The notes: generated by a model not told the origin, from the letters alone. A stretch of DNA of 64,000 nt from Candidatus Eiseniibacteriota bacterium (GCA_030595835.1 JAUVLG010000001.1:4614-68613); one strand, 5' to 3'; positions 34,919 through 63,899 are shown, counted from the stretch's first letter. Numbers and translations: made by a program.

Positions 34919-34921
34919 GAA

Positions 34922-36061: not shown

Positions 36062-36064
36062 CGC

Positions 36065-47730: not shown

Positions 47731-50106
47731 ATGAAGACCAGCAAACGACACAGCGAAGAGCGGAGAGTGCGCGCGCCAAGGGACGGCGAAGCGCCGCCAC
47801 TCTTCGGAAGCCACGCGACACTCATCTCGATCCTGCTCCTGGTAGCCGCGGGGCTCATCTTCTTCTGGCGAGTGCTCTTCCTTGGTGAGATCCTGACGGG
47901 CGGCGACGTCCTGGCTGCGGCAGCCATCTTCGAGGACTACGCGACGGACCAGATGGCGAGCGGGCGGCTCCCCCTCTGGAACCCGTACATCTTCTCGGGA
48001 ATGCCGTTCTTCGACAGCATGAGCTGGAGTGCCTTCGTCTACCCGAGCTACTGGCTCACGTTTGCCCTGGAGAAGATCCCGGGCGTCGAGCTGCCCCGGC
48101 TCTTCTTCCTGTTCCTGCACTACGAGCTGGCCGCGCTCGGCACGTACTTCTACCTGCGGTCACGTAAGGTCGGCCACGGCGGCGCCGTCATCGCGGGGCT
48201 GGCCTTCATGCTGTCACCTCATATGATAGGCTTAGCTACGATCGGGCACGGAGGGAAGATACTCGCGACGGCTTATCTTCCGCTCATCCTGATGGCCGCG
48301 CACAAGCTGATGGAGTCGGCTGACAGGCGGTGGATCGCGATTCTGGGCCTCGTCGGCGGGCTGCAGTTCCTCGCCCGACACGTGCAGATAAGTTACTACA
48401 CATGGCTGGCCGTCCTCGTGCTTATGGTCTACTACCTTGTGGTGCGCCGCCGGGCAGGCGAGCCGTGGAACGCACTGGGCGCGAGCGTCGGGTCAGTGGC
48501 AATCGGCGGCGTTCTGTCCGCAATGCTCGCGGCCGTTCTGCTTCTGCCACTCATGAGTTACTCAGAGTTCTCTACGCGCGCCGCGCACGCCGGCGGGATG
48601 GGTTTCGAGAACGCGGTGATGTGGTCGATGCACCCCAAGGAACTCCTGACCTTCCTTGTCCCGTCCTTCTTCGGCCTGGCGAACGAAACCTACTGGGGGA
48701 CCATGCCGTTCCAGCAGGTCTCTCACTACGTCGGTTACGTGGTGCTCTGCCTCGGTGCTGTTGCGTTGATACGAAGGAAGGACCGCAGCGTCGGCTTCCT
48801 TCTTGCCCTGGTGGCCGTTGGGATCTTCATGTCGTTCGGACGGCACCTGGGACCTGTCTACAGGGTGATCTACCAGGTGCTGCCGGGCTTCCGGCGCTTC
48901 AGGGTCCCTGCCATGTCGCTGATACTGGCGCAGTTCTCGCTGGCGGTACTCGCCGGCTACGGTGCCTCGCTGCTGCTGGGGGAAACCGGGCGTCGCCGGG
49001 GAAGCATGGTACGGTGGGCCATCGGTTGCGCCGCGCTCGGAGGCGTGGTGAGTCTGATCGTAATGGCATCTCGGGGATCGATCGGATCCGCGGCCACAAC
49101 GGCGCTCATGCTGAAGCACGTCGGTGCCCAGGCATCCGCGCTCCGGGAGGTCGGCGCACGTGCGGCCACCATGGCGTTCCGGGACGCAGGAATCCTATTG
49201 GCATTCGCTGCCGCCTCGGGCGTGGCGGTCTTCGTCGCCGGCACGCGCAGGCTGCCTCGCCTGCTCGTGTTCACCCTGCTTCTCGGAGTGGTGATCTGGG
49301 ACGTGGGTGTGGTGAACGCGCGCTTCATGCACCCAGAGAAGATGAGTTCGCTCGATCAGTACTACCGGGAGTCACCGGCCGTATCGTTCCTGAAGCAGCA
49401 GGAGGGCGTGTTCCGGATCGCGCCCGTCGACAGGGAGTTCTCCTCGAACGTGTGGATGTACCATCGGATCCAGACCATCGGCGGCTACCACCCGGCCAAG
49501 CTGGCGGTCGCCGACGACCTTCTGGGCAAGCTGGGTATCGGCAATCTGAAGCTCCTGGCTCTCCTCAACGTCAAATACGTAGTCGGGCCGGAGGAACTCG
49601 ATCACCCGGCGTTTGTGCGCGTTGCACCCGGGGTACACGAGAACCTCGCTGCATTCCCAAGGGTGTTTCTGATCGGCTCGGTCAAGCAGGTCTCGCGCGA
49701 GAGGATGGCACTGACCGAGCTCGGTATCGACAACTTCAATCCGGCAGAGACCGCGATCTTGCTGGAGGAGCTGCCCGGCCCGGTATTTGGCACCGAGGGG
49801 AGCACAGCCGAGCTGGTTTCGTACGAAGCGCACGAGATGACCGTGCACGCCAGCATCCGGCAACCTTGTCTTCTCGTCTTTTCCGAGGTATACTATCCGC
49901 CGGGTTGGAAGGCGTTTGTTGATGGCGCCGAGACGACAATCTATCGAACCGACTACGCTCTGAGATCGGTGTATCTTACGCTCGGTGAACACACCGTGGT
50001 GATGAGGTACGTCCCATCTCAGTTGCGTCGTGGCCTCTTCATCAGTCTCCTCGCGGCCGCTGCCCTAGTGGGACTTTTGGTGTGGCCGGTGAAGCGACAC
50101 GAATAG
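47731..50106 (+). CDS. YfhO-family GT-C membrane glycosyltransferase
   Basis: 791 aa. Large N-terminal TM domain, then a C-terminal domain with EVYYPPGWKAFVDGAETTIYRTDYALRSVYLTLGEHTVVMRY, the characteristic YfhO tail. Confidence 0.75.
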   Translation: MKTSKRHSEERRVRAPRDGEAPPLFGSHATLISILLLVAAGLIFFWRVLFLGEILTGGDVLAAAAIFEDYATDQMASGRLPLWNPYIFSGMPFFDSMSWSAFVYPSYWLTFALEKIPGVELPRLFFLFLHYELAALGTYFYLRSRKVGHGGAVIAGLAFMLSPHMIGLATIGHGGKILATAYLPLILMAAHKLMESADRRWIAILGLVGGLQFLARHVQISYYTWLAVLVLMVYYLVVRRRAGEPWNALGASVGSVAIGGVLSAMLAAVLLLPLMSYSEFSTRAAHAGGMGFENAVMWSMHPKELLTFLVPSFFGLANETYWGTMPFQQVSHYVGYVVLCLGAVALIRRKDRSVGFLLALVAVGIFMSFGRHLGPVYRVIYQVLPGFRRFRVPAMSLILAQFSLAVLAGYGASLLLGETGRRRGSMVRWAIGCAALGGVVSLIVMASRGSIGSAATTALMLKHVGAQASALREVGARAATMAFRDAGILLAFAAASGVAVFVAGTRRLPRLLVFTLLLGVVIWDVGVVNARFMHPEKMSSLDQYYRESPAVSFLKQQEGVFRIAPVDREFSSNVWMYHRIQTIGGYHPAKLAVADDLLGKLGIGNLKLLALLNVKYVVGPEELDHPAFVRVAPGVHENLAAFPRVFLIGSVKQVSRERMALTELGIDNFNPAETAILLEELPGPVFGTEGSTAELVSYEAHEMTVHASIRQPCLLVFSEVYYPPGWKAFVDGAETTIYRTDYALRSVYLTLGEHTVVMRYVPSQLRRGLFISLLAAAALVGLLVWPVKRHE

Positions 50107-50118
50107 GGGAACCCCTGC

Positions 50119-50832
50119 ATGAAGACTACGGTGGTAGTGCCCACCTACAACGAGAGAGCGAACCTGGAAGAGCTGATACCGCGCATCCTGGGGCAGCTCC
50201 CCGACATTGAGCTTCTGGTTGTCGACGACGGTTCCCCGGACGGGACCGGCGAGTACGCGGACTCGGTGGCGGCTGAGAACCCGCGCGTCCAGGTGCTGCA
50301 CCGGCCCGGGAAGATGGGCCTGGGTTCCGCCTATGTCTACGGCTTCACGCATTGCCTCGCCACGGACACCGAGCTCGTGATCCAGATGGACGCGGACTTC
50401 TCGCACAACCCGGACGAGATTCCCAAGCTCGTCGAGCGGGCGCGCACACACGACGTCGTTCTGGGCTCGCGGTACATCAGCGGGGCCAATGTGGTCAACT
50501 GGCCGCTCAGGCGACTGTTTCTGAGCTACTTCGCGAACGTGTATACGCACATCATCACTGGACTGCCACTTCGGGACTCCACGGGCGGTTTCAAGTGCTT
50601 CCGCCGGAAGGTTCTGGCTGAGATAAAACTCGATACCATCAAGTCCGACGGGTACTCGTTCCAGATAGAAGTGAACTTCAGGAGCTGGAGAAAGGGCTTC
50701 TCGATGGTCGAGATCCCCATAGTGTTCGTGGATCGTCACTCCGGCACTTCGAAGATGTCCAGGTGGATAGTATGGGAGGCGATGTGGTTGGTCTGGCGCC
50801 TGAGACTCGAGAGAATACTGAGGAGGCTGTGA
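50119..50832 (+). CDS. Polyprenol-monophosphate hexose synthase (Dpm1/Ppm1-like GT2)
   Basis: VVVPTYNERANLEELI...LVVDDGSPDGT...IQMDADFSHNP: canonical dolichyl/polyprenyl-phosphate mannose synthase core. 237 aa, soluble. Confidence 0.8.
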   Translation: MKTTVVVPTYNERANLEELIPRILGQLPDIELLVVDDGSPDGTGEYADSVAAENPRVQVLHRPGKMGLGSAYVYGFTHCLATDTELVIQMDADFSHNPDEIPKLVERARTHDVVLGSRYISGANVVNWPLRRLFLSYFANVYTHIITGLPLRDSTGGFKCFRRKVLAEIKLDTIKSDGYSFQIEVNFRSWRKGFSMVEIPIVFVDRHSGTSKMSRWIVWEAMWLVWRLRLERILRRL

Positions 50833-53036
50833 GCTACCCTTCAGAGCCCGACCTCTCGATTGTCATCGTCGGCTACAACAGCCTGCCGGAGCTGGGCAGG
50901 TGCCTGGCGTCGGTTCGAGATACCGCGGCCGCCATACATCCTGAGATCGTGGTTGTTGACAACGCCTCCGCAGACGGTACGGTGGAGTTCCTGGAGCGGG
51001 AACTCCCCGATGTGCGTCTGGTGGCCAACGGCAGGAACGTCGGTTACTCCAGGGCGGTCAACCAGGGCATAGCCGAGGCCAGGGCACGCTATATCCTGGT
51101 GCTCAATCCTGACATCGTCGTGCTCCCGGGCGCGCTGGACCGACTCGTCTCGTTCATGGACGACCAGCCGGATGCCGGAATCGCAGGGGCGAAGCTACTG
51201 AACGAGGACGGATCTCTACAGCACTCGTGCAGGCGCTTCTACACATTCTGGACGCTGGTGCTTCGACGAACGCCACTCGGGAAGCTGTTCCAAAACGGCA
51301 AGACGATCTCACGCTATCTGATGCTCGAGTTCGACCACGAGGAGTCGAGGGAAGTAGACTGGGTTCTCGGCGCCTGCATGATCGTGCGGAGAACGGCGCT
51401 CGCTGATTTCGGGGGTATGGACGAGCGCTTCTTCCTGTACTTCGAGGACGTCGATTGGTGCTACCGCGTCTGGCAGAGCGGGTGGAAGGTCTGGTACGTC
51501 GCCGATTCCGTCATGCGGCACCGGCACGCGCGGGAGAGCGCGCGAGGCGGCCTCTCCAAGCAGCTCATCGCGCATGGGCTCTCCATGATCCACTTCTACG
51601 AGAAGTGGGGGAAGGCGATCTACGGGTTGAAGAAGTACCGGACGGTTCTCACCAACTCGGTCCTCCTGTTCACCGACCTCGTCGCCATCAACGTCGGCTT
51701 CGGACTCGCCTACATCCTGAGGTCCAGCCTGCACGGACTTCTCGAGAAGCCGATGTTCGGTGTCTCGATCTACGCGACATTGCTGGCGTTCGCCAACCTC
51801 GTTTTCGTGGTCTCGTACGGGTTCTTCGGGCTGTACGGGGCCTCCATCGAGAGGGAGCGGTCATCGGACGTGGCCCTGAGGATCTTCAGGGCGGCCCCTG
51901 TAGCCGCTATCATCCTGATGGCGAGCACGTTTCTCACATCGAGGACCGTCTACTCGCGCGTACTCATAGCCGCCTTCTGCGTCCTGGCGGTCGTCCTGAC
52001 GTTCCTTCTGCGGATGGGACTCAAGAGGCTCCACTGGCTGGTGCGCGCCGGGCGATTCGACCTGACGAGGGTGGCGGTGGTTGGTACGGACGAGACCTCC
52101 CGCAGAGTGGCGGAGCGGCTGCTCTCGCACTCCGCGCTGGGCTATGATCTGGCCGGGCTCGTGGCGGCCGACGGCGACGAACGACCACCGGGCTTCCAGG
52201 TTATCGGGCGGCTGGAGGATCTGCCCGAGCTCATCGAGAAGCACCGGGTCGGAGAAGTCATATTCGCGGACTCGGAGATCTCTCAGGAGAGGGTCGCCGA
52301 CTTCCTCCTCAAGGCAAGAAGAAGCGCCGTCGACGTCAAGATGGTGTCCGGACTGACCGGCATCCTGACGCAGCGGGCTAAGGTCGAGGAATTCCTGGAC
52401 CTCCCCGTTGTCGCATTCGAACGCGAAGCGCTCCTTAGAGCCGATGCCGGGATCAAGCGTACGTTCGACGTCGTCGCAGCCGCCCTGCTCATTGCCATCT
52501 GGGCGCCGCTTCTTCTCGTAACGTCCGTCGCTACCCTGATAACCAGGAAGACCGGGCCTCTCTCGACGGTCGAGTGCGCGGGTCTGGGCGGAAGAACGTT
52601 CAGCATGCACGTCCTCAACAGGATCGACGAGCCGTCGGCGCTCAGGAGGTTCACGCTTCGTCACGGGCTCTCTGTCTTCCCGGCGGTCATCAATGTGCTG
52701 AGAGGTGACATGAGTTTCATCGGTCCTCGCGTGGTCGCCCCGGTGGACCCCGGCTCCCTCAACCTGAGGGAGCGACTGCGATTCGATGCGAGGCCGGGGA
52801 TCACCGGCCTTGCGCGGGTGTCCGCGGGGGAAGATCTGTGTTCTCGAGACGAACTCGAGGCACTCGACGCCTACTACGTGCAGGGTTGGTCCCTCGGCGG
52901 GGACGCCAAGATCCTGATGAGATGGTCCATGCAGTGCCTTCTGGGATGGGTTCATGTGTCGGGTGAACCAGGTTCGCTCGGAGCGCCGACGGCGTCCGAG
53001 GAGCTCGCCGGATCCGGCGCGTCCGGCGACCATTGA
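50829..53036 (+). CDS. Fusion protein: N-terminal GT2 glycosyltransferase + C-terminal WbaP-type polyprenyl-phosphate glycosylphosphotransferase (large PGT) domain
   Basis: N-terminus has SIVIVGYNSLPEL...VVDNASADGT...YFEDVDWC GT2 motifs. Four TM helices and a CoA-binding-like domain follow. The PGT core carries KRTFDVVAAALLIAIWAPLLL...NVLRGDMSFIGPRVVAP...PGITGLARVSAGEDL...LDAYYVQGWSLGGDAKIL. GTG start at 50829 overlaps the upstream stop (GTGA) and follows AGGAGG. Confidence 0.7.
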   Translation: MSYPSEPDLSIVIVGYNSLPELGRCLASVRDTAAAIHPEIVVVDNASADGTVEFLERELPDVRLVANGRNVGYSRAVNQGIAEARARYILVLNPDIVVLPGALDRLVSFMDDQPDAGIAGAKLLNEDGSLQHSCRRFYTFWTLVLRRTPLGKLFQNGKTISRYLMLEFDHEESREVDWVLGACMIVRRTALADFGGMDERFFLYFEDVDWCYRVWQSGWKVWYVADSVMRHRHARESARGGLSKQLIAHGLSMIHFYEKWGKAIYGLKKYRTVLTNSVLLFTDLVAINVGFGLAYILRSSLHGLLEKPMFGVSIYATLLAFANLVFVVSYGFFGLYGASIERERSSDVALRIFRAAPVAAIILMASTFLTSRTVYSRVLIAAFCVLAVVLTFLLRMGLKRLHWLVRAGRFDLTRVAVVGTDETSRRVAERLLSHSALGYDLAGLVAADGDERPPGFQVIGRLEDLPELIEKHRVGEVIFADSEISQERVADFLLKARRSAVDVKMVSGLTGILTQRAKVEEFLDLPVVAFEREALLRADAGIKRTFDVVAAALLIAIWAPLLLVTSVATLITRKTGPLSTVECAGLGGRTFSMHVLNRIDEPSALRRFTLRHGLSVFPAVINVLRGDMSFIGPRVVAPVDPGSLNLRERLRFDARPGITGLARVSAGEDLCSRDELEALDAYYVQGWSLGGDAKILMRWSMQCLLGWVHVSGEPGSLGAPTASEELAGSGASGDH

Positions 53037-53082
53037 GAAGGCTCTAGCTAGGCTATGATCTTGCATGAAGGAGCAGACAACC

Positions 53083-54456
53083 ATGAGACTACTACTGCTT
53101 ATCTCACTCGTCGTCGCGCTCGTGCCTGCGCTCCCTGCGGGAGCTCAGGAGTGGCTGGAGGTGCCACTCCCGGACGGGCCGAGCGACGGGAACCCGAAGA
53201 TCCTCGACATTGCCGTGGAGGGTAGCACGGTGTGGTTCTCCACGCTGCGCGACGGCATCATCGGATACAACGGCGCGGAGTGGGTCCTTCATACGCTCGA
53301 GGACGGTGGGCTCCGCAGCAACAATTACCGGTACGTGATTTTCGTCGACTCGGACGGAGACAAGTGGACCTCAAAGGACAACAGCGATTTCGCCGTGGAC
53401 AGACTCGATGACGGCGGGAGTTTCCTTTTGAAGAGCGACGACATCTGGACCTACTACAACAGCCCCACACCGTTGCAGAGCAACCGTGTGTTCGCAATGT
53501 CCGAGGATTCGGCCGGAAACAAGTGGTTCGGGATCAGGGACGAGAGCAGCAGCAACGCGGAGCCTACTACACTCGAACTCCTTGTAGAGAACGACCCTGA
53601 TACGACCGCGGATGACGAGTGGTTGGCGTTCGACTACTTCGACGACGAGAGCCTCTTCTTCGATGATGATGTGAGGGGTCTGGCGGTCGACCACGAGAAC
53701 CGTCTTTGGATCGTCTACGCGCCCGAAGGCGTGGGGATGGGGCTCGACGTGTGGGAGTTCGGCGACTACTACTCCTTTGACGACGATACGGTGACGCACT
53801 ACGGCCCGCTCGAGGGCCTCCCCAGCAGGTCGGTGTACGACGTCCACGTCGGACCGAACGGCCGCGTCTGGGTCGGGACCCAAGCGGGCCCGGCGTATCT
53901 GGACGCGTCGACCGATCAGTGGGTCGCTATCGACGACGTCACGGCCAGGACCCGGTCGGTCGCATCGGACGCCCAGGGACACATATGGGCCGGCACCGAC
54001 GAGGGTGTCGTCATGCTCTACAGAAGCGGTGAGGTTGTGAAGACCTACACCGCGCTCGCCGACGGCTTGCACGACGATGCGATCGCCCTGGTTGGCGTTG
54101 ATCAGACGAACGGAACGGTGTGGGCCGTCTCCGTGAACGGCGTGGACGAGACCTTCCTCAACGTGCTCGAGTCCGGGTTCGGTCCGGAGCCGCGCCTCTT
54201 CGCCTATCCCAACCCATGGAAGGCAGGGGAGACGTCCGAGAGGAACGTGAGTATCCTGGGCGCACCGGAGGGCTCCACCGTCGAGATCCTTGATATCATG
54301 GGGCAGAGCGTCCGGAAGCTCGACGCGGAGCGTGAACCCTACGTCTGGAATTCACTGGACGACGACCTGAACGAGGTGCCGAGCGGAGTGTATGTGGTCA
54401 GGGTAGAGACCCCCGCGGGCGAAATGATGTTCACGAAGGTCGCCATCATAAGGTAG
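53083..54456 (+). CDS. Secreted beta-propeller-like protein with T9SS type-A / FlgD-Ig-like C-terminal sorting domain
   Basis: Signal peptide MRLLLLISLVVALVPALPAGAQE. Repeated ...W.GT..G... propeller-like units. C-terminal domain FAYPNPWKAGETSERNVSILGAPEGSTVEILDIMGQSVRKL...SGVYVVRVETPAGEMMFTKVAIIR, with G.Y...V and terminal K..I.R. Confidence 0.6.
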   Translation: MRLLLLISLVVALVPALPAGAQEWLEVPLPDGPSDGNPKILDIAVEGSTVWFSTLRDGIIGYNGAEWVLHTLEDGGLRSNNYRYVIFVDSDGDKWTSKDNSDFAVDRLDDGGSFLLKSDDIWTYYNSPTPLQSNRVFAMSEDSAGNKWFGIRDESSSNAEPTTLELLVENDPDTTADDEWLAFDYFDDESLFFDDDVRGLAVDHENRLWIVYAPEGVGMGLDVWEFGDYYSFDDDTVTHYGPLEGLPSRSVYDVHVGPNGRVWVGTQAGPAYLDASTDQWVAIDDVTARTRSVASDAQGHIWAGTDEGVVMLYRSGEVVKTYTALADGLHDDAIALVGVDQTNGTVWAVSVNGVDETFLNVLESGFGPEPRLFAYPNPWKAGETSERNVSILGAPEGSTVEILDIMGQSVRKLDAEREPYVWNSLDDDLNEVPSGVYVVRVETPAGEMMFTKVAIIR

Positions 54457-54459
54457 CCA

Positions 54460-55923
54460 ATGAACAAGCAGAAGAAGGAAGTTCGCACGCTGGTGGTTGG
54501 TGCGGGATCCGCCGGGACGATGGCCGCAACCGAGATGGCCAAACGCTCCGAGCATGGCTACGTCGTCACGGGGTTTCTTGATGACGATCCGGCGAAGCTT
54601 GGGCGGACGATCGCCGGGGCTCCGGTGCTCGGTGCCATAGCGGACCTTGCAGTCGTCGCAGCCGAACACGACATCCAGGAAGTAGTCATAGCCATACCCT
54701 CTGCATCAGGCCACACCATCCGCGAGGTGGTGCGACTCTGTGAGGGGGCCGGGCGCTCGTTCAAGATCGTCCCAGGCGTCTGGGAGATAATCCTCGGCGA
54801 CGTCCAGATCAGTCAGATCAGGGAACTCGAGCTCGCGGATCTGCTGGGACGCGAGACCGTCGCGCTCGACACCGAGAAGATGACCGCCTATCTCAGCGGT
54901 CGCGTCGTCCTCATCACCGGCGCGGGCGGTTCCATCGGGTCCGAGCTGGCCAGGCTCGTCGCCGGGTTCAAGCCTTCGTGCATCCTTCTGATGGGACGGG
55001 GGGAGAACAGCGTCTACGAGATCGACAGGGAGCTGGCGATCGACCACCCGGACGTCAGTCGGGTTCCTGTTATCGGCAGCGTTACAGACGAGGTGGCGCT
55101 GGAGAAGGTCTTCGCCGAGCACCATCCAGAGATAGTGTTCCATGCGGCCGCGCACAAGCACGTTCATCTGATGGAGTTCTTTCCGGACGAGGCCATCAAG
55201 AACAACGTTACCGGCACGCGCAGGCTGATCGAGGCGGCCACGAGGCACGACGTCGACCGGCTTGTGATGCTCTCGACGGATAAGGCGGTGCGCCCGAGGG
55301 GTGTCATGGGCGCGTCGAAGCGCCTGGCAGAGCTGACGATACTCAGGAAGACGGCGGCGGGGTGCCGCACCAAGCTGATCGCCGTGCGTTTCGGCAACGT
55401 ACTGGGCAGCCGAGGCAGCGTAGTACCCATGTTCCAGCAGCAGGTTCGGCTTGGTGGGCCCGTCACGGTGACGCACCCGGACGTGACGCGATACTTCATG
55501 ACCATCCGCGAGGCCGCGATGCTCGTGCTGGAGGCCGGTTTCGCCGGCCGCGGTGGTGAGATATTCGTGCTGGATATGGGGGACCCCATACGAATAGCGG
55601 AACTGGCCGAGCACGTGATCAGGCTGTCCGGCCTCGAACCCGGCACGGATATCGCTATAGAGTACTGTGGACTCCGTCCTGGCGAGAAACTGCACGAGGA
55701 GCTGTGGTCCTCAGCGGAGACCTTGTCGCGGACCGAGTACGAGAAGATCATGGTCCTGAAGTCCAGTGACACACCGCCGCTCGCGCAGACGACCGCTGCC
55801 TCCGACGCGCTGGAGGAACTGGCCGCACGCGGCGACCGCGAGGGAATTGTCCGGATGCTCCGTGAACTGTTCGAGGACATGCCGGCGGAGGAGCTAGATG
55901 AAGACGGCACTACCTGCGGTTGA
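54460..55923 (+). CDS. UDP-N-acetylglucosamine 4,6-dehydratase (PglF/CapD/WbpM family, soluble form)
   Basis: N-terminal CoA-binding-like domain, then SDR core VLITGAGGSIGSEL...MGASKRLAE... Confidence 0.8.
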   Translation: MNKQKKEVRTLVVGAGSAGTMAATEMAKRSEHGYVVTGFLDDDPAKLGRTIAGAPVLGAIADLAVVAAEHDIQEVVIAIPSASGHTIREVVRLCEGAGRSFKIVPGVWEIILGDVQISQIRELELADLLGRETVALDTEKMTAYLSGRVVLITGAGGSIGSELARLVAGFKPSCILLMGRGENSVYEIDRELAIDHPDVSRVPVIGSVTDEVALEKVFAEHHPEIVFHAAAHKHVHLMEFFPDEAIKNNVTGTRRLIEAATRHDVDRLVMLSTDKAVRPRGVMGASKRLAELTILRKTAAGCRTKLIAVRFGNVLGSRGSVVPMFQQQVRLGGPVTVTHPDVTRYFMTIREAAMLVLEAGFAGRGGEIFVLDMGDPIRIAELAEHVIRLSGLEPGTDIAIEYCGLRPGEKLHEELWSSAETLSRTEYEKIMVLKSSDTPPLAQTTAASDALEELAARGDREGIVRMLRELFEDMPAEELDEDGTTCG

Positions 55924-57097
55924 GGGCGGCGAACCCGTCAGGGAGGAATTCCTTCCGTTCGCGACGCCCTCCGTTGGCGAGGACGAGATAGCCGAGGTCG
56001 TCGAGACCCTGAGATCTGGATGGCTGACCGTCGGTCCGAGAACGAAGAGGTTCGAGGAGATGATCGCGGGCTACGTTGGGGTCGCACGTGCGGCGGCTCT
56101 CAGCTCGTGCACGGCGGGCCTGCATCTCGGCATGATAGCCCTCGGCGTGGAGGAAGGCGACGAGGTCATCCTCCCGGCACTCAACTTCGTTGCCGGGCCG
56201 AACTGCGCGATTCATCTTGGCGCGACACCAGTGCTCGTGGATGTGGACCCAGAGACGCTCAACGTAACACCCGAGATCCTGGCTGCCGCGATCACGGAGC
56301 GCACGAAGCTCATCGTGCCGGTGCATTATGGGGGACGGCCGATTGACATCGACGGCATCATGGAGGTTGCGCGCTCCCGGGGTATTCCGGTTCTGGGTGA
56401 CGCCGCGCATGCTCTGGGGTCGGACTACGGCGGACGCAAGGTGGGGTCCGTTGCTGACGCCACGTCGTTCAGCTTCTACGTGACCAAGGGGATCACAACC
56501 GGAGAGGGGGGCAGCCTGACCTCCCCGAACCCCGACCTGGTTGAGCGCGTCGGAGTCTTGAGCCTCCACGGAATGAGCAGCGGGGCGTGGAACCGCTACT
56601 CGGCGCGCGGCTCGTGGTTCTACGAGATCCACGAGGCAGGTTACAAGTACAACATGAACGATATCCAGGCCGCCATCGGCGTCCACCAGATGAAGAAGAT
56701 CGACGAGTTCAGAGACAGGCGAGAGAAGATCGCACGAATCTTCGATCGCGGGCTTCGGAGCGAAGAGGCGATCAGTGTGCCCTCCTCGTCCGAGTCGAGC
56801 GGACACGCGTGGCACCTGTACCCGATCCGCTTGAGAACGCAGGCGCTTAAGGTCGACCGCGACTCGTTCATAGGGTGTCTCAGGGACGAGGGAATAGGAA
56901 CGAGTGTCCACTTCATTCCGGTCCACTACCACGACTACTACAGCAAGCGGCTCGGCTACAAGCGCGGTAGTTTCCCTGTGACCGAGACGTTCTTCGAGCA
57001 CGCGGTCTCGCTTCCCATCTACCCGTCGATGAGCGATGCTGATGCGAACGATGTGGTCGAGGCAGTGACCAAACTGCTGGCCTACTACAGGAGATAG
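55898..57097 (+). CDS. DegT/DnrJ/EryC1/StrS-family PLP-dependent sugar aminotransferase (PglE/PorR-like)
   Basis: SFSFYVTKGITTGEGG lysine motif and overall DegT fold. Confidence 0.85.
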   Translation: MKTALPAVEGGEPVREEFLPFATPSVGEDEIAEVVETLRSGWLTVGPRTKRFEEMIAGYVGVARAAALSSCTAGLHLGMIALGVEEGDEVILPALNFVAGPNCAIHLGATPVLVDVDPETLNVTPEILAAAITERTKLIVPVHYGGRPIDIDGIMEVARSRGIPVLGDAAHALGSDYGGRKVGSVADATSFSFYVTKGITTGEGGSLTSPNPDLVERVGVLSLHGMSSGAWNRYSARGSWFYEIHEAGYKYNMNDIQAAIGVHQMKKIDEFRDRREKIARIFDRGLRSEEAISVPSSSESSGHAWHLYPIRLRTQALKVDRDSFIGCLRDEGIGTSVHFIPVHYHDYYSKRLGYKRGSFPVTETFFEHAVSLPIYPSMSDADANDVVEAVTKLLAYYRR

Positions 57098-57160
57098 CCC
57101 TTCTGGGAGCGTCCGGGGTGATCCCCAACGAGGCTATCGCCGAGGACAGGCAGAGAAGAG

Positions 57161-58147
57161 GTGGCTCAAGCGTTGGACATAGAGGTATCAGTCGGCATCG
57201 ATTCGCAGGAGTGGGGCTGCCTCGTCGCTGAAGACGAGGCAGCTACGTTCTTCCATACGTCGGAGTGGTCCGAGGTTCTGACCTCGACGCTGCCCGGCTT
57301 CGAGTCGGCGCACGTCACCGCGCGTGAGCACGGTCGTTTGGTGTCCATCATGCCGGTACTCAGTCGACCGAGGCTCAGGACCGCGACGCTGGAGTCAATG
57401 GCTTTCGGCACCTTCGGAGGACCGGTGCTGGGCGCCCACGCTCCCGCGGCCGCAGCGGGGGCGGTACTCGCTGCATTCGCCGGCGCTGCGGCGTCGCTGC
57501 GGGTCGGGCTGGCGCAGGTGGTCGACCGGTCGGGCCGAATACAGGACTCGCATCTGCCCGGCTTCCGCCGCACCGACGATACTCTGCAGGTCGTTTCTCT
57601 CGAGGCGAGCTACGACGAGCTCGAGAGACACTTCAAGCCGTCCGCCCGCAACAAGGTGCGGAAGGCCATCAAGGCCGGAGTGACAGTCAGACGCGCGGAG
57701 TCCGAGGCGGACTTCCTGGCCTACCACGCGGTCCTCGAGGAGTGCAGCCGCGAGTGGGCGATCAGGCCACGCCCGGGACGCGAGTTCTTCAGCGCGCTGT
57801 TTGAGCTCGACCGGGACGTGGTGCAGATGTGGCTGGCGTTTCACGATGGTGACGTGCTGGCGGGCGACCTCAACTTCGCCCTTCACGGGACCGTGATGAA
57901 CTGGGGCAACGTGTCGACCGACGCCGCCAAGTCGCTCGCGCCGAACAACCTCCTGCACGCCAACGCGATAGAGCAGGGCGTGCGTGACGGGTACCAGACC
58001 TATGACCTTGGCTCGAGCGGCGGCATCGAGGGAGTCAGAGCTTTCAAATCGTCCTTCGGGACGGCGGACGTCCCGCTGCGAAGATTCGTGATGGAGAAGA
58101 CCTGGTATCGTGGCCTGAAGAAGGCTACTGGTCGCCGGTCGGGCTGA
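57161..58147 (+). CDS. FemAB / Acetyltransf_6-family (GNAT-fold) acyl- or aminoacyl-transferase
   Basis: Motifs SARNKVRKAIKAGVTVRRAESEADF, FFSALFE, WLAFHDGDVLAGDLNF, YQTYDLGSS and AFKSSFG match the BioF2-like/FemAB-like acetyltransferase family common in polysaccharide loci. GTG start. Confidence 0.6.
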   Translation: MAQALDIEVSVGIDSQEWGCLVAEDEAATFFHTSEWSEVLTSTLPGFESAHVTAREHGRLVSIMPVLSRPRLRTATLESMAFGTFGGPVLGAHAPAAAAGAVLAAFAGAAASLRVGLAQVVDRSGRIQDSHLPGFRRTDDTLQVVSLEASYDELERHFKPSARNKVRKAIKAGVTVRRAESEADFLAYHAVLEECSREWAIRPRPGREFFSALFELDRDVVQMWLAFHDGDVLAGDLNFALHGTVMNWGNVSTDAAKSLAPNNLLHANAIEQGVRDGYQTYDLGSSGGIEGVRAFKSSFGTADVPLRRFVMEKTWYRGLKKATGRRSG

Positions 58148-58249: not shown

Positions 58250-59536
58250 ATGAAATCCAGTGCCAGGATAGTCCTCCTCGTGGCCATCGCGGTCCACATT
58301 GTGTTCCTGGCGTCACTCATCGCCCCCGGGCACTTCCTGAATCCGCTTTTCCCCGAGGGGATGCACAATCTGGGTGAGGGGCAGGGCAGTGACTTCTATG
58401 CTTTCTATCAGGCCGGGCGCTACGTGCTCGACAATGAGAATATCTACACGAGACCCATGGACGACCCGGACCGCGTCGTTCCGTACGCGTACTTCTACCG
58501 CTACCTTCCATTCGTGGCGTACACGATAGGAGTTGCGGCGAATGCGGTCCCGCCCGTGGTCGCCTACTGGATCTGGGTCGCGATCATCGAGCTGGTCCTG
58601 GGACTCTGCATCTGGGGCACGCGCGGCATCACTCGAGACGGAAGCCTCTTCGCCTACCTGGCCGCGATGTGGCTCATGTACACGCCCTTCTATCTGGAAC
58701 AGTACATGGGGCAGCTCACGTTCGCGATGGCGGCGATGTCGTTCGCTTTCGCCGTGATGCACCTTCGGGGGAGAGCGCTTGCATCCGACGGTTGGTGGTG
58801 GGCCAGTGTGGTCATCAAGCACCTGACGGTGCTCTATGTGCCGATTCTGATCAGGTTGCGGAAGTACCGGACCATCGCCATCGCCGTACTGCTGCTGCTC
58901 GTGACGAGCGTTCCCTACTATCTGCTCCGGAACCACGGGACCGGCCATTTCACGCATGACAACTTCAGCCTCAATCTTGACCCCTACGCCGGGAACATGG
59001 GCGCTGTTGCCTTCTTCATGGTCATAAAGGAGCGTTTCTTCCCGTTCGCCTCACAGGTGCTGGTTCACCTGGGTCCGCTCAAACTATCGATCACACGCGT
59101 GGGCGTGGGGCTGATCATGGGCGTGCCCGTGCTCGTGAGTCTCTGGGCCACCTTTCGAAGGAGACCCTTCGATTTCCTCGAGTCCTTCGCGCTGTGGACG
59201 ATGGTGTACTTCTTCGTATTCAGAGAAGTGTGGGAATACCACTACGTTCTCCTGATGCCCGTGTTCGTGCTTCTCTACGCGCGGACGCGGGCGCGGGTGC
59301 TGTGGTTCATCTACGCGCTGGCCGCCCTCCCAACGCTCTTCGTTCTATATGACGTCCCCGGCTCGGACCCGGGAGAGGCGTGGGAAGCGTGGAGCGCGTT
59401 CGAGCACGTCCTTAACCACGGCTTGAAACTGATACCCGTCGTGTGGCTCTTCGTCTGGGTGGCCGCGGGCTACCTCCGCCGACACACGAAGCTCATGGAA
59501 TCCCGAATGGACACGGGACTCGACCTGCTCACCTGA
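58250..59536 (+). CDS. Polytopic membrane protein, candidate GT-C-fold glycosyltransferase (DUF2029/GT87-like)
   Basis: 428 aa, about 10 TM helices, aromatic-rich loops. The assignment rests only on context and topology. Confidence 0.4.
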   Translation: MKSSARIVLLVAIAVHIVFLASLIAPGHFLNPLFPEGMHNLGEGQGSDFYAFYQAGRYVLDNENIYTRPMDDPDRVVPYAYFYRYLPFVAYTIGVAANAVPPVVAYWIWVAIIELVLGLCIWGTRGITRDGSLFAYLAAMWLMYTPFYLEQYMGQLTFAMAAMSFAFAVMHLRGRALASDGWWWASVVIKHLTVLYVPILIRLRKYRTIAIAVLLLLVTSVPYYLLRNHGTGHFTHDNFSLNLDPYAGNMGAVAFFMVIKERFFPFASQVLVHLGPLKLSITRVGVGLIMGVPVLVSLWATFRRRPFDFLESFALWTMVYFFVFREVWEYHYVLLMPVFVLLYARTRARVLWFIYALAALPTLFVLYDVPGSDPGEAWEAWSAFEHVLNHGLKLIPVVWLFVWVAAGYLRRHTKLMESRMDTGLDLLT

Positions 59537-59626: not shown

Positions 59627-60736
59627 ATGCGAATTGCGTATCTCTCAATAGGCGGACACATACACACCGAGCGGTGGCTCCGCTTCTTCGTGGATCGTGG
59701 GCACGACGTCCACCTGATGACGGTCCAGCCTGCGCCGATCGAAGGCGTGAAGCTGTACGACATCCGAACGGGCATTCCCTTCAAGGCTCTGCACTACGCC
59801 GTGGCGCTGCGGGAAGTGAAGAGGATCCTGGCGGAGATCCAGCCGGATCTCCTGCACACTCACTTCCTCACCGGGTACGGCTACTGGGGCGTCTTCTCGG
59901 GATTTCATCCCAACATCCTGACGGTCTGGGGCGATGACGTCTACCTGACACCCCACACGTCCTTTCTGAAGGGCTGGCTCGCACGCATGGCGCTGAGAGG
60001 CGCCGATCTCGTAACGGGAGACTCGGACGACATACTGGAGCATGCCATCGCCATGGGGGCGGAGAGGGAGGCGTGCCACGTGATTCAGTGGGGCGTTGAT
60101 CTGGCGGCTTTCAGGCCCGACGCGCCGTCCGACGTGCGGGAGCAGCTTGGCATCCCCGCCGACTCACCGGTCGTCATCAGCATCAGGAGCTTCACGCAGC
60201 CGTACTACAACATCGACGTCATCGTGCGTGCCATTCCCGGGATTCTCGAGAAGCGGCCGGACACACATTTCATCATCGCCGGAAACGAGGGCGACGACAC
60301 GGAGTTCAGAGCCCTGGCCGGAGAGCTGTCCATCGACGACAGAGCACACTTCGTGGGCAAGATCCCACACGAGGAGCTGCCGGGGTACCTGGTGGCTTCA
60401 GACGCGTTCCTGAGCGTGCCGTCGGTCGATGCGACGGCCGTGTCGTTGCTGGAGGCCATGGCGTGCGGGACTCCGGTCGTGGTGTCAAGCCTGGATTCGG
60501 CGCTTGAGTGGGTCACCGATGGGAAGAACGGACTCGTCGTCACTCCGCGCGACCAGGGTGCGCTCGAGTCCGCCGTCCTGCAGCTCCTGGACTCGCCAGA
60601 GCGCAGGCGCGAGTTCGGGACCATCACTGCCGGGATGGTTCGGGAGCGCGCCGACCACGACGCGCACATGTCCAGAATGGAGGAGCTCTGCGTGGAGCTC
60701 GTCGAGCGCTGGAGGAAGACCAGTGGAACCAGCTAG
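59627..60736 (+). CDS. Family 4 (GT-B) glycosyltransferase
   Basis: MRIAYLSIGGHIHTERW start, then GT4 C-terminal E-x7-E region ...LEAMACGTPVVVSSLDSALEWVTDGKNGLVV. Confidence 0.75.
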   Translation: MRIAYLSIGGHIHTERWLRFFVDRGHDVHLMTVQPAPIEGVKLYDIRTGIPFKALHYAVALREVKRILAEIQPDLLHTHFLTGYGYWGVFSGFHPNILTVWGDDVYLTPHTSFLKGWLARMALRGADLVTGDSDDILEHAIAMGAEREACHVIQWGVDLAAFRPDAPSDVREQLGIPADSPVVISIRSFTQPYYNIDVIVRAIPGILEKRPDTHFIIAGNEGDDTEFRALAGELSIDDRAHFVGKIPHEELPGYLVASDAFLSVPSVDATAVSLLEAMACGTPVVVSSLDSALEWVTDGKNGLVVTPRDQGALESAVLQLLDSPERRREFGTITAGMVRERADHDAHMSRMEELCVELVERWRKTSGTS

Positions 60737-61679
60737 ATCAGTTAGCGTCATCATCCCCACATTCGGGAAGCGGGAGCTCCTCGAGGCTACGCTCGACTCG
60801 CTCGGACGGCAGACCTACCCCGCGGAGCAGATCGAGATCGTCGTCGTTGATGACGGGTCCGATGATGACACGTTCGAGTATCTCCGGTCGCTCGATACTC
60901 CCTACGCTCTCGTTCCCATCAAGCACGAGATCAACAAGGGGAGGGCCGCCGCCCGGAACACGGCCATCGAAGCCTCAACGGGCGACCTCACCGTGTTCGT
61001 GGACGACGACATGCGCTGCGAGCCTGATCTCATAGAGCGCCACGTCTCCTTCCACGCCGCGCACCCCGGTGTTGTCGTCATAGGCAGCGCCGTCACGGCG
61101 CCGGAGCTCGGCCGCGCGACCGTGTTCACATACCTTGACGAGATGGGGGTGCACCGTCTGCCGGCAGGCTCGGTATCTCCGGCCCGGTACTTCGCCACCA
61201 ACAACGCGTCCGTCGAGCGGCGACACCTCCTGGACGTTGGGTTGTTCGACGAGTCATTCAGAAACTACGGATGCGAGGACACGGAGCTGGCCTTTCGTCT
61301 GGAGGACGATGCGGGACTGAGGTTCATGTACTGCGCCGAGGCCGTCGCATACCACATACACACGCAAACGCTCGACGATGTCCTCGCGAAGCGCATCGGC
61401 AGCGTCCCCCCGTTGCTGCTGCTGATCACCAAGCATCCTGACCGCGCCTCCGAACTCTCCATCGACGTGCTGATGCCGCCCGCGCCGGGAGACTCCGTTG
61501 GAGTCAGGCTACATAAACTCCTCCTTGCGTTCTCCACGAACCGGCTCTTCTATGCGCTGGTCAAGTCGCTCGCGCGAGTCGTCTGGCTCCGCGGCCTCTC
61601 CAGGGACGTGATGGTGTATCTCATCGCCTGCCAGTACCGTCGCGGACTGCGCCTGATCTCGGAAGAGAACAGCAGCTGA
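60723..61679 (+). CDS. Family 2 glycosyltransferase
   Basis: VSVIIPTFGKRELLEATLDSLGRQTYPAEQIEIVVVDDGSDD...VFVDDDM. GTG at 60723 follows GGAGGA; the track's 60429 start lies inside the previous gene. Confidence 0.7.
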   Translation: MEPARSVSVIIPTFGKRELLEATLDSLGRQTYPAEQIEIVVVDDGSDDDTFEYLRSLDTPYALVPIKHEINKGRAAARNTAIEASTGDLTVFVDDDMRCEPDLIERHVSFHAAHPGVVVIGSAVTAPELGRATVFTYLDEMGVHRLPAGSVSPARYFATNNASVERRHLLDVGLFDESFRNYGCEDTELAFRLEDDAGLRFMYCAEAVAYHIHTQTLDDVLAKRIGSVPPLLLLITKHPDRASELSIDVLMPPAPGDSVGVRLHKLLLAFSTNRLFYALVKSLARVVWLRGLSRDVMVYLIACQYRRGLRLISEENSS

Positions 61680-62342: not shown

Positions 62343-63095
62343 ATGGATGACGTCGAAAGGCTGGCCTCTGAGGTCATCCGAAGGCTAAGGGGAAACGAGA
62401 CCAACGCCAGCGGGCCCGGTGAGGGCCAGACCGCCGCAGGTGGCACGAGGGAACCCGCGTCCGGCGGAGGTGTATCCTCCGGCCAGGGACAGGGACAAGA
62501 GAAGCTCGGGGAAGCGGGCGCGCTGACGGGAATCCCGGTGACCGTGTCCGGACGCCACATGCACATCTCGAGGGGTGTGCTGGACCGGCTGTTTGGCGAG
62601 GGGTTCCAGCTGAGCAGGCTTCGCGACCTCGGTCAGCCGGGCGAATTCGCCTCCGAGCAGACGGTGACCGTAGTGGGTCGCTCGATGCGCACGCTTGAGG
62701 GTCTGCGTGTGCTGGGTCCCGTGCGGCCTTACGCGCAGATCGAGCTTTCTGGCACAGACGCTGTCCGGTTGGGTATCGACCCGCCCGTCCGGACGTCCGG
62801 CGATCTGGTCGGGAGCGAGAGCGTCACGGTCGTGGGTCCGTGTGGATCGGTGCATCTCAAGGAGGGCGTCATAATGGCGACCCGCCATATCCACATGACG
62901 GAGCGCGACGCTCGCGAGTATGGAGTTGCCGACGGCGCCCGCGTTCGCATACGCTTCTCGGGCGACCGTGCGCTGGTTCTGGAGAACGTGCTGGTGCGCG
63001 TCGGAAGAAGCTCGGCGCTCGAGCTGCACCTGGACACTGACGATTCCAACGCCGCGGGTGTGCGGCTGCCGATGACCGTGAAGATTCTTCGCTGA
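62343..63095 (+). CDS. pduL: PduL-type phosphate acyltransferase with N-terminal encapsulation peptide
   Basis: Two PduL repeats: GRHMHISRGVLDRLFGEGFQL..LGQPGEFASEQTVTVVG...LRVLGPVRPYAQIELSGTDAVRLGI and GPCGSVHLKEGVIMATRHIHMTERDAREYGVADGARV...LELHLDTDDSNAAGV. N-terminal amphipathic helix MDDVERLASEVIRRLRG, then a Gly/Ser/Gln-rich linker. Confidence 0.85.
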   Translation: MDDVERLASEVIRRLRGNETNASGPGEGQTAAGGTREPASGGGVSSGQGQGQEKLGEAGALTGIPVTVSGRHMHISRGVLDRLFGEGFQLSRLRDLGQPGEFASEQTVTVVGRSMRTLEGLRVLGPVRPYAQIELSGTDAVRLGIDPPVRTSGDLVGSESVTVVGPCGSVHLKEGVIMATRHIHMTERDAREYGVADGARVRIRFSGDRALVLENVLVRVGRSSALELHLDTDDSNAAGVRLPMTVKILR

Positions 63096-63131
63096 TCTTG
63101 AGGGTCGAAGCATTTGAGGGAGGTGTGGCAC

Positions 63132-63407
63132 TTGTCAGGCCTTGCGCTGGGGATGGTCGAGACGAAGGGCGTGATCGGGCTGATCGAAGCCACGGACGCC
63201 ATGGTGAAGACGGCGAATGTCACGCTGACGAAGTACGAACGGATCGGCGGCGGCTACGTGACGACGCTGGTCAGAGGTGATGTTGGTGCGGTCAAGGCGG
63301 CGGTGGCGGCGGGTGCGGAGGCCGCGCAGAAGATCGGCGAACTCGTGGCGTACCACGTGATACCGGCGCCTCACGAGATGCTGGAGGACGTACTGCTCAA
63401 GCCGTAA
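63132..63407 (+). CDS. BMC-H shell protein (PduA/EutM-like)
   Basis: [55 protein letters not shown]: canonical BMC domain. TTG start at 63132; the track's TTG is at 63114 and an in-frame ATG at 63153. Confidence 0.85.
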
Positions 63408-63478
63408 GGCTACCCTCGGCGGGCAGCCGGACGGACGATGCTGTGACGAACAACTGAATTCGTTCACAGGAGGTTACG

Positions 63479-63775
63479 ATGGGCGAGGCCCTAGGAATGA
63501 TCGAGACTCGCGGCTTCATCGGCATGGTTGAGGCAACCGACGCAATGGTCAAGGCCGCGAACGTCACGCTGGTGCACTACGAGAAGGTGGGCGGAGGCTA
63601 CGTCACCTCGCTCGTTCGCGGTGACGTAGCTGCGGTCAGAGCCGCGGTTGACGCGGGAACCGCAGCGGCCAGCAAGGTCGGCGAGCTGATCTCGACGCAC
63701 GTCATCCCGAAGCCGCACCTCAGTCTTGAGGACGTGCTGCCGATCGGGAAGACGACCGGAGCAAAATCCAAGTAG
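63479..63775 (+). CDS. BMC-H shell protein (PduA/EutM-like), second copy
   Basis: [60 protein letters not shown] follows AGGAGG. Confidence 0.9.
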
Positions 63776-63899
63776 CTGGGCGATCGTCCGGATGTTGTTC
63801 GGACGACCGGGCTCCGGCGGACCGGGTGCGCAGGCGCCCTCGCTTGTGCCGGGCACACCCAGCGCTATCCGCGCGCCCCAACCGGGGCAAGGGCGGAAC

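Follow-up and report, generated by a model that had tools for sequence, protein, structure and literature searches.

VimA, from the Wbp/Vim pathway of Porphyromonas gingivalis and Tannerella forsythia, is an N-acetyltransferase-like protein of a surface-glycan pathway, and genetic evidence shows that it sets whether serine or glycine is carried, in amide linkage, by the amino sugar that anchors cargo of type IX secretion (T9SS), the T9SS linking sugar (PMC7468200). VimA matches the family TIGR03019 (PMC7468200) and had earlier been reported as a putative acetyl-CoA transferase (as cited in PMC7468200). The amine on which VimA is proposed to act sits at C2 of a 2,3-diamino uronic acid, where VimE exposes it by deacetylation. 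In P. gingivalis, the product of the DegT-family aminotransferase WbpE is acetylated by an LbH enzyme. The FemAB family TIGR03019 itself comprises Fem-like proteins from exopolysaccharide loci that are tied to protein sorting (PEP-CTERM/exosortase).

Aminoacyl transfer to an amino sugar is also found in the streptothricin-type antibiotics, where Sbb17, Sba18 and Orf11 (Gly-tRNA-dependent; PDB 9wqw-9wqy) act on a free secondary-metabolite intermediate of Streptomyces rather than on a surface-glycan nucleotide sugar. Sba18 and Sbb17, labelled in the PDB as aminoacyl-tRNA-dependent peptide synthases, were solved with the amino sugar streptothrisamine, and Orf11 transfers glycine from Gly-tRNA to streptothrisamine in vitro (PMC12945691). 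FemX of W. viridescens is a soluble Fem enzyme that uses aminoacyl-tRNA and a UDP-linked substrate, its acceptor being the lysine side chain of UDP-MurNAc-pentapeptide in peptidoglycan synthesis. The lysine of its FK motif is proposed to be catalytic (K305), and the equivalent residue is required in DhpH-C (K329) (PMC12945691). In the PglF-PglE-PglD pathway of C. jejuni, the third gene encodes an LbH N-acetyltransferase. Sugars of the type considered below occur in O-antigens, which contain N-glycyl and N-alanyl 4-amino-4,6-dideoxyhexoses (PMC3210612; PMC7685785), as the initial annotation of the present DNA had said of such N-acyl chemistry in general.

A gene trio within a surface-glycan cluster

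The window (the whole 64-kb stretch of DNA analysed) comes from an uncultured Eisenbacteria-like bacterium and contains a contiguous + strand surface-glycan cluster of ~29 kb (32884-61679). Within it, three closely spaced genes lie in the same direction: a PglF-like dehydratase gene (54460-55923, +, 487 aa; Pfam Polysacc_synt_2, 2e-109), a DegT-family aminotransferase gene (55898-57097, +, 399 aa; Pfam DegT_DnrJ_EryC1, 8e-123) and a Fem/VimA-like double-GNAT gene (57173-58147, +). The initial annotation had delimited this feature as 55898-58147, which takes in the latter two genes and omits the dehydratase directly upstream. The dehydratase and aminotransferase reading frames share 26 nt, and 63-75 nt separate the aminotransferase stop from the Fem-like start, with a ribosome-binding site, GAGAAGAGG, ahead. 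The TTG at 57173, the start position used by homologues, gives a Fem-like protein of 324 aa; an alternative GTG at 57161 would give 328 aa.

The dehydratase combines an N-terminal CoA_binding_3-like domain with Polysacc_synt_2 and is of the soluble type, its sequence having no transmembrane segments and lacking the hydrophobic N-terminus that anchors PglF and WbpM. Its nearest solved relative is C. jejuni PglF (5bju, 260 bits), and the catalytic motifs STDK and MGASK align with STDK and MGCTK of PglF; the Polysacc_synt_2 domain thus carries the Thr-Asp-Lys triad, with Met replacing the SDR Tyr, that defines the retaining PglF/WbpM class. Relatives of the inverting or 5-epimerising type reach no more than 122-157 bits, and the PseB and FnlA equivalogs fall far under cutoff. 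These similarities identify the protein as a PglF/WbpM-like, NAD-dependent UDP-GlcNAc 4,6-dehydratase, in agreement with the earlier reading, and the enzyme would convert UDP-GlcNAc to UDP-2-acetamido-2,6-dideoxy-hexos-4-ulose.

For the aminotransferase, the highest scores were obtained with solved C4 enzymes (ArnB, 308 bits; Spr1654, 245; TlmJ, 232; perosamine synthase, 215), whereas the C3 aminotransferases QdtB (190 bits) and WbpE (145 bits) were lower. The sequence is therefore that of a DegT-family, PLP-dependent sugar aminotransferase of the C4 type, predicted to transaminate C4 and so yield a UDP-4-amino-4,6-dideoxy-HexNAc of one or the other C4 configuration. The earlier label of a PglE-like aminotransferase holds as to the C4 type, but the protein is closer to ArnB and Spr1654 than to PseC (160 bits), and no PglE-labelled chain is among the matches listed at E <= 1e-30. 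The first two steps follow the logic of the C. jejuni bacillosamine pathway, with a homologous dehydratase and the third gene in the N-acyltransferase position, while both enzymes differ from their counterparts there, the dehydratase in having no membrane anchor and the aminotransferase in being nearer to ArnB.

The genes around the trio would supply the remainder of a glycan pathway. At 50763-53036 (+), a GT2 glycosyltransferase is fused to a polyprenyl-phosphate glycosylphosphotransferase, and this fusion protein is the likely initiating enzyme of the glycan (Pfam GT2 5e-25, Bac_transf 3e-22, CoA_binding_3 6e-15; NCBIfam EPS_sugtrans 207 bits). A candidate Wzx-like flippase (46356-47624, +) gives a weak Polysacc_synt match (3e-06, 27.3 bits) slightly below the 28.2 cutoff, and its syntenic counterparts in the related loci L001 and L004 also match this family. 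The polytopic membrane protein encoded at 58250-59536 (+) has no Pfam match in the window copy, while the gene in the same position in L002-L005 matches GT87 (PF09594), a GT-C type glycosyltransferase family. Towards the end of the cluster lie a GT4 glycosyltransferase (59627-60736, +; Glycos_transf_1, 3e-32) and finally a GT2 glycosyltransferase (60741-61679, +; Glycos_transf_2, 5e-28). The trio is proposed to form a nucleotide-sugar branch of the cluster; the phosphoglycosyl transferase and glycosyltransferases encoded next to it would build the modified sugar into a glycan on an undecaprenyl carrier, which would then be exported.

The + strand cluster (32884-61679) encodes no LbH/Hexapep acetyltransferase, no other GNAT and no CE4 deacetylase, and neither a second aminotransferase nor homologues of WbpA, WbpB, WbpD or the VimE-like CE4 deacetylase are found in it. 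Since no other acyltransferase or deacetylase is present, the C4 amine is the sole new amine on offer. This bears upon the possibility that the Fem-like protein aminoacylates something else in the same pathway, such as a lipid, a hydroxyl group or a further amine of the glycan, whether the latter is still lipid-linked or complete, with the 4-amino group staying free as in AATGal-containing zwitterionic polysaccharides. S. aureus FemX acts on lipid II and not on a nucleotide precursor, and VimA is proposed to use a deacetylase-exposed C2 amine instead of an aminotransferase product. Furthermore, of the solved aminotransferases that take a 4-keto-6-deoxy-HexNAc, Spr1654 is the closest, and its product AATGal retains a free amine (PMC5936713). 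However, no deacetylase or second aminotransferase is available in the cluster to supply another amine, and together with the gene order described below this makes an alternative acceptor improbable in our estimation.

The Fem-like protein and its relatives of known function

The Fem-like protein matches Acetyltransf_6 (PF13480; 3e-16, 60.3 bits, cutoff 22) and, more weakly, FemAB (28 bits) and FemAB_like (25 bits). Its AlphaFold2 model (pLDDT 93) comprises tandem GNAT domains forming one fold. The third gene is therefore FemAB-like and not of the LbH type, as had been proposed from the outset, and differs in this from PglD. The top NCBIfam match is TIGR03019 (pepcterm_femAB; E 3e-20, 72.5 bits, under the 260 cutoff), and no exosortase or PEP-CTERM genes occur among the scanned window genes. 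VimA of Porphyromonas, which also matches TIGR03019, is the closest precedent, this family match being the one sequence feature common to both.

Searches with the model by Foldseek returned Sba18 and Sbb17 with streptothrisamine as best matches (TM 0.72/0.81), followed by FemX, FemA and MprF; full-length TM values to Sba18/Sbb17 and FemX are given as 0.69-0.72. In parallel, a profile search of PDB sequences placed Sba18 first (E 1e-14). Sequence identity to the streptothricin transferases is only 16-17%. The FK motif, F291-K292, lies near the C-terminus and aligns as GVRAFKSSFG with GINRFKLGFG in Sba18 and GLWAFKKVWG in S. aureus FemX. K292 is the sole invariant column in an alignment of 81 diverse relatives. 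In addition, residues 156-167 form a conserved basic helix that lines up with basic helices in Sba18 and FemX, a hint of aminoacyl-tRNA use. Both the fold and the FK lysine are shared with the streptothricin enzymes and with W. viridescens FemX, and the modelled structure is that of a Fem-type double GNAT best matched by aminoacyl-tRNA-dependent transferases. We infer that the enzyme would add an amino acid to the new C4 amine, most likely from an aminoacyl-tRNA, with the invariant lysine acting as in FemX. No dedicated tRNA gene lies near the Fem-like gene. The donor used by VimA is also putative.

A donor of the acyl-CoA type has also to be considered, in which case the Fem-like protein would be an N-acetyl or N-acyl transferase replacing PglD without the LbH fold, and the product would resemble di-N-acetyl-bacillosamine or be another N-acyl sugar. 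The family goes by the name of GNAT N-acetyltransferase in Pfam (Acetyltransf_6), in database entries and in automatic annotation, and the gene follows the aminotransferase in the usual N-acetyltransferase position. GNAT-fold sugar N-acetyltransferases do exist, for example PseH and WecD. The CoA-using tandem GNATs 2wpw, VipF and Eis are among the fold matches, though at lower rank (TM <= 0.59), whereas the best matches, by structure as well as by sequence, all use aminoacyl-tRNA. Moreover, the family-invariant residue is the FemX-type lysine and not a CoA-site residue, and the CoA pyrophosphate-binding loop Q/R-x-x-G-x-G/A is absent after beta-4 of domain 2 (residues 248-258, STDAAKSLAPNN), as it is from the family consensus. 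With regard to VimA, the initial annotation had taken it as an acyl-CoA transferase, which is no longer its best description, given its role in deciding which of the two amino acids, serine or glycine, the T9SS linking sugar carries; an interspecies swap of VimA turns serine into glycine on that sugar (PMC7468200). An aminoacyl reading is therefore favoured over an acyl one, and we regard acyl-CoA-dependent transfer as unlikely.

Gene order among relatives of the Fem-like gene

Searching some 186,000 species genomes yielded 80 related loci; the Fem-like gene was detected in 79 of them, and 77 were scorable. These span many phyla, including archaea (Halobacteria and Thermoplasmata). A DegT gene lies within 10 kb of the Fem-like gene in 44/79 loci and is its directly upstream, same-strand neighbour in 27 of the 77 scorable loci, with a further five loci having DegT two genes upstream; the reverse arrangement, with DegT directly downstream, occurs in none of the 77. 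Against a background of 1.7% DegT among other genes, the binomial P is about 4e-28, a value that is overstated by the shared ancestry of the loci. The adjacency is scattered across the entire family tree, and the relatives behind this statistic share just 23-35% identity with the Fem-like protein of the window. The PglF-like dehydratase is found in none of the 79 related loci.

The survey supports a functional link between the aminotransferase and the Fem-like gene that is much stronger than the initial annotation could have known. Because the order DegT-then-Fem is strict in 27 loci and never reversed, the two enzymes probably catalyse consecutive pathway steps, which argues against an acceptor other than the aminotransferase product. 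Such a direct step differs from P. gingivalis, where an LbH enzyme acts upon the product of WbpE, and the proposed C4 amine on a 4,6-dideoxy-HexNAc differs from the C2 amine assigned to VimA. Seven of the 27 loci with the DegT-Fem order also carry a gene for an LbH acetyltransferase, which would be redundant if the Fem-like protein itself acetylated the sugar.

The distribution of relatives also bears upon whether the Fem-like protein might be a peptidoglycan interpeptide-bridge enzyme (FemX/MurM type) placed by chance in a glycan cluster. Weak matches to FemAB (Pfam) and FemX (NCBIfam) are in its favour; however, the score against the peptidoglycan FemX equivalog (NF047883) is 30.4 bits, where the cutoff is 500, relatives both near and far are always found in Wzx/GT glycan clusters, and some occur in Halobacteria and Thermoplasmata, which are without murein. 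The grouping with cross-bridge enzymes that would have told against the original proposal was thus not seen, and we rejected this identity as exceedingly improbable on the basis of the FemX score and the murein-free archaeal relatives.

The T9SS context and a possible anchoring sugar

Directly upstream of the trio, at 53065-54456 (+), is a gene for a secreted PorZ-like protein, which combines a signal peptide and a single beta-propeller with a C-terminal sorting domain of T9SS type A. This T9SS context, lying inside the cluster, was missed by the initial annotation. The protein matches NCBIfam T9SS_PorZ (NF052228) with E 4e-22 and 78.5 bits, below the 260 cutoff, and its sorting domain matches Por_Secre_tail (TIGR04183) with 31 bits, over the cutoff of 23. 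The AlphaFold2 model (pLDDT 87) has PorZ (5m11) as its best PDB fold match, E 4.6e-20, although PorZ contains two beta-propellers. A PorZ-like gene occupies the equivalent position in the Eisenbacteria loci L001-L004.

Among the wider relatives, five Bacteroidota loci have a predicted PorU2 sortase gene (719-784 bits, cutoff 450) as the immediate upstream neighbour of the DegT-Fem pair. In these loci the Fem gene is followed by an LbH acetyltransferase or a formyltransferase, which could cap either amine. A T9SS context may be common to VimA, to the present cluster, through its PorZ-like gene, and to relatives of the Fem-like gene, through PorU2. The window contains no PorU, PorV or other T9SS core gene. 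Since taxa that lack T9SS (Chloroflexota, Actinomycetota, archaea) have the DegT-Fem pair as well, any part that it plays in T9SS cannot be general.

Taken together, the gene order, the fold and the invariant lysine lead us to favour, by a modest degree, a Fem-like enzyme that aminoacylates the 4-amino sugar, possibly making a T9SS anchoring sugar. More speculatively, a PorU-type sortase may amide-link T9SS cargo to the free alpha-amine of the amino acid so attached, and the PorZ-like protein of the cluster would act as glycan adaptor. In its broadest form, which we advance tentatively and consider rather doubtful, DegT-Fem would be a widespread, previously undescribed module for N-aminoacyl amino sugars, the amine of the amino acid would be the nucleophile for PorU/PorU2 ligation in T9SS lineages, and the window would hold an Eisenbacteria-like anchor-glycan locus with its own PorZ-like adaptor. 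If this is true, it would represent a second, deacetylase-independent route to the T9SS linking sugar, outside Bacteroidota.

The dehydratase, aminotransferase and Fem-like genes

Glycan genes run uninterrupted on the + strand from ~32.9 kb to 61.7 kb of the window, which has a G+C content of 63% and whose genes have homologues bearing the name Candidatus Eisenbacteria. The cluster encodes several GT2, GT4 and GT9 glycosyltransferases, an epimerase, a Wzx-like protein and a GT2-phosphoglycosyltransferase fusion. The last of these precedes a set of three genes, described in the initial annotation, that were all found on the + strand with Pfam support. They encode a Polysacc_synt_2 dehydratase (54460-55923, 2e-109), a DegT aminotransferase (55898-57097, 8e-123), whose gene overlaps that of the dehydratase by 26 nt, and, ~70 nt further on and preceded by a ribosome-binding site, an Acetyltransf_6 protein (57161/57173-58147, 3e-16; FemAB and FemAB_like matches weaker), termed the Fem-like protein. 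No other acyltransferase or deacetylase is encoded within the cluster.

Among solved proteins, the dehydratase is closest to the C. jejuni PglF catalytic domain (260 bits), and the unusual STDK and Met-for-Tyr motifs of PglF are retained; the inverting/5-epimerising enzymes PseB, CapE and FnlA score only 122-157 bits. Unlike PglF, the window enzyme has no membrane anchor. The aminotransferase is nearest to C4 enzymes (ArnB, 308 bits; Spr1654, 245; TlmJ, 232; perosamine synthase, 215) and further from the C3 enzymes QdtB (190 bits) and WbpE (145), while falling under the NCBIfam cutoffs of both PseC and ArnB. Since ArnB is the closest solved aminotransferase, an Ara4N-type pathway was considered; it was rejected because no ArnA-like decarboxylase is present, the sole other SDR being a generic epimerase. 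Given a PglF-like dehydratase and a C4-type aminotransferase, the most economical product predicted for the pair is UDP-4-amino-4,6-dideoxy-HexNAc.

Further features were observed on the + strand of the same cluster. Its upstream end (33782-37959) encodes a radical SAM/SPASM protein, a DUF362 protein, an unannotated 284-aa ORF and a stand-alone flippase-like LPG_synthase_TM protein. Two alkaline-phosphatase-superfamily (Phosphodiest/Sulfatase) proteins (41978-43396 and 44530-46311), one membrane-anchored and the other lipoprotein-like, have the C-terminal motif L(R/K)(A/S)LGYIE in common. A YfhO-family membrane protein adjoins a polyprenyl-phosphate GT2 (47731-50832), with weak NCBIfam matches to the Streptococcus protein-glycosylation components PgfM1 and PgfS, which suggests a second, extracytoplasmic glycosylation step. 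The small polyprenyl-phosphate-type GT2 (50119-50832) overlaps by ~70 nt the 757-aa fusion of a GT2 with a WbaP-like phosphoglycosyltransferase (within 50119-53036, ending at 53036), an unusual union of elongating and initiating enzyme in one protein. Directly 3' of the cluster is a bacterial microcompartment locus, described from the window (62343-64000) together with the downstream flanks of the related loci L001-L004 and encoding PduL, BMC shell proteins, an aldehyde dehydrogenase, an RnfC-like protein and a class II aldolase; it is syntenic across Eisenbacteria.

Family and fold of the Fem-like protein

Close homologues of the Fem-like protein (42-87% identity) come near-exclusively from Eisenbacteria, where gene order is identical, and the same set was returned by a second search using a diverse profile. 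Synteny within Eisenbacteria was left out as independent evidence, since conservation in these genomes extends even to the neighbouring microcompartment locus. The wider family is large: when 1.8 billion cluster representatives were searched with a profile, 1,925 of them matched at E <= 1e-30. Some members (P0153, P0160, P0182, P0195 and P0214) are fused to SAM methyltransferase, sulfotransferase, Kdo/WaaP-kinase-like or ATP-grasp-like domains, and these kinds of partner recur as neighbour genes of stand-alone Fem genes.

The AlphaFold2 model of the protein (pLDDT 93) gave as best fold matches, in order, Sba18/Sbb17, FemX of S. aureus and W. viridescens, FemA, and the aminoacyl-phosphatidylglycerol synthase domains of MprF, with CoA-using tandem GNATs ranking below all of these. 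Sba18/Sbb17, labelled as aminoacyl-tRNA-dependent peptide synthases, have structures with the amino sugar streptothrisamine, and Sba18 was also top in a profile search of PDB sequences (E 1e-14). In that search the family motif GVRAFKSSFG was aligned to GINRFKLGFG of Sba18 and GLWAFKKVWG of S. aureus FemX. This FK motif contains the lysine proposed as catalytic in W. viridescens FemX (K305) and needed in DhpH-C (K329) (PMC12945691); its counterpart here, K292, is the sole invariant column across 81 diverse relatives. An acyl-CoA pyrophosphate loop is absent from the protein. The grouping with peptidoglycan enzymes that the initial annotation had named as contrary evidence was not seen, the FemX equivalog model giving 30 bits where its cutoff is 500. 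The best NCBIfam match is TIGR03019 (pepcterm_femAB), yet at 72.5 bits against a cutoff of 260.

Linkage of aminotransferase and Fem-like genes across phyla

A motif-selected alignment of distant relatives was used to retrieve 80 loci from GTDB species genomes, spread over Chloroflexota, Acidobacteriota, Actinomycetota, Bacteroidota, Cyanobacteria, Myxococcota, Aminicenantes, Halobacteria, Thermoplasmata and others. Using tblastn with the window proteins, the Fem-like gene was detected in 79 loci, with a DegT homologue <=10 kb away in 44 of them. After gene calling, DegT was directly upstream on the same strand in 27 of the 77 loci that could be scored and directly downstream in none (0/77); it was two genes upstream in 5 more. 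One relative (28% identity) has DegT directly downstream. Among the other genes of the related loci, 1.7% are DegT, which gives a binomial P of ~4e-28 for the adjacency, an overstatement because the loci are related. Adjacency is spread over the entire family tree. Seventeen of the adjacent DegT genes score >300 bits against the window DegT, at 40-47% identity. The strict order, DegT then Fem, is that expected of consecutive steps in which an amine is made and then acylated.

Searches with the window proteins found a PglF-like dehydratase in none of the related loci, and several carry RmlA/RmlB-type genes instead, so the pair seems to serve various NDP-4-keto sugars. Further neighbours include Wzx flippases, GT4s, methyltransferases, sulfotransferases and LbH (left-handed beta-helix) acetyltransferases. 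Among the top neighbour families, enrichment of VimE-like deacetylases beside Fem genes without an adjacent DegT was not seen. Two or three Fem-like paralogues stand in tandem at L008:1844-6747 and in L020, L022, L029-L031, L039, L048, L049 and L052, notably in Chloroflexus and relatives; this arrangement, reminiscent of the sequential FemX/A/B system, hints at glycans that bear oligopeptide side chains.

The best-supported reading is that the Fem/VimA-like enzyme would aminoacylate the C4 amine made by its upstream DegT neighbour, placing an N-aminoacyl-4-amino-4,6-dideoxy-HexNAc in the surface glycan. As judged from fold and motif, the donor is probably aminoacyl-tRNA. A dedicated tRNA or aminoacyl-tRNA synthetase paralogue was not found near the cluster, the window's only such genes being tRNA-Gln (10249) and a housekeeping alaS (1171).

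Possible association with type IX secretion, and significance

A related use of such chemistry is known from type IX secretion (T9SS), in which the linking sugar is 2-N-seryl-3-N-acetylglucuronamide in P. gingivalis (Veith et al.) and 2-N-glycyl-3-N-acetylmannuronic acid in T. forsythia; substituting the T. forsythia gene for P. gingivalis vimA changes serine to glycine (PMC7468200). VimA matches N-acetyltransferase and TIGR03019 models, the latter also being the best NCBIfam match of the window protein. In P. gingivalis, however, the aminotransferase product is acetylated and VimA is proposed to work on another amine, in contrast with our reading of the window.

In five Bacteroidota loci, of which three are from Saprospiraceae MAGs and two from unclassified Bacteroidota MAGs, the DegT-Fem pair directly follows a gene for a ~1,665-aa protein scoring 719-784 bits on the NCBIfam PorU2 model (cutoff 450). 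These runs (L044:2070-7073, L046:2234-7228, L065:3788-8797, L077:1588-6579 and L083:3802-8796) have an operon-like order of putative sortase PorU2, DegT, Fem, LbH acetyltransferase or formyltransferase, methyl-/sulfotransferase, Wzx and GT4. In the window, a gene for a secreted PorZ-like protein (53065-54456, +) lies between the phosphoglycosyltransferase and dehydratase genes, a position kept in all Eisenbacteria loci examined. Its product scores 31 bits for the T9SS type A sorting domain (cutoff 23), and its structural model (pLDDT 87) has PorZ 5m11 as top PDB match (E 4.6e-20), followed by glycan-sensing propellers (~1e-14). The role of PorZ is to bind the anchor glycan and offer it to the sortase PorU (PMC8545088). 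By analogy, it is plausible, though unproven, that T9SS cargo is ligated onto the N-aminoacyl residue. Against this, the PorU2 loci have LbH or formyl transferases beside Fem, the PorZ-like protein is single-propeller and matches the PorZ model under its cutoff (E 4e-22), T9SS core genes are missing from the window, and the DegT-Fem module is present also in lineages without T9SS.

Aminoacylated amino sugars are themselves known chemistry (PMC3210612, PMC7685785). For decades, 3- or 4-amino-dideoxyhexoses of O-antigens and capsules have been documented to carry amide-linked amino acids, for example as N-acetylglycyl, alanyl and seryl groups, and the E. coli O-antigen review names no enzyme for such substituents. 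No direct literature precedent was found for FemAB with a polysaccharide, amino sugar or O-antigen; Fem-type transfer onto amino sugars does have precedents in Orf11 (biochemical) and VimA (genetic). What appears to be new is a conserved cross-phylum DegT-Fem module working without a deacetylase, its use together with a PglF-type dehydratase, and the physical linkage of the module to PorU2 and PorZ-like genes.

The conserved pair is a concrete candidate, in many phyla, for the addition of amino acids to amino sugars. The idea drawn from VimA is widened, in that a T9SS cargo-anchoring sugar could arise by a different, simpler route, and the Bacteroidota PorU2-DegT-Fem operons, together with the PorZ-like gene here, offer genetic handles on cargo attachment beyond the Porphyromonas model. 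Should the donor be aminoacyl-tRNA, the family would represent one more large non-translational use of charged tRNA.
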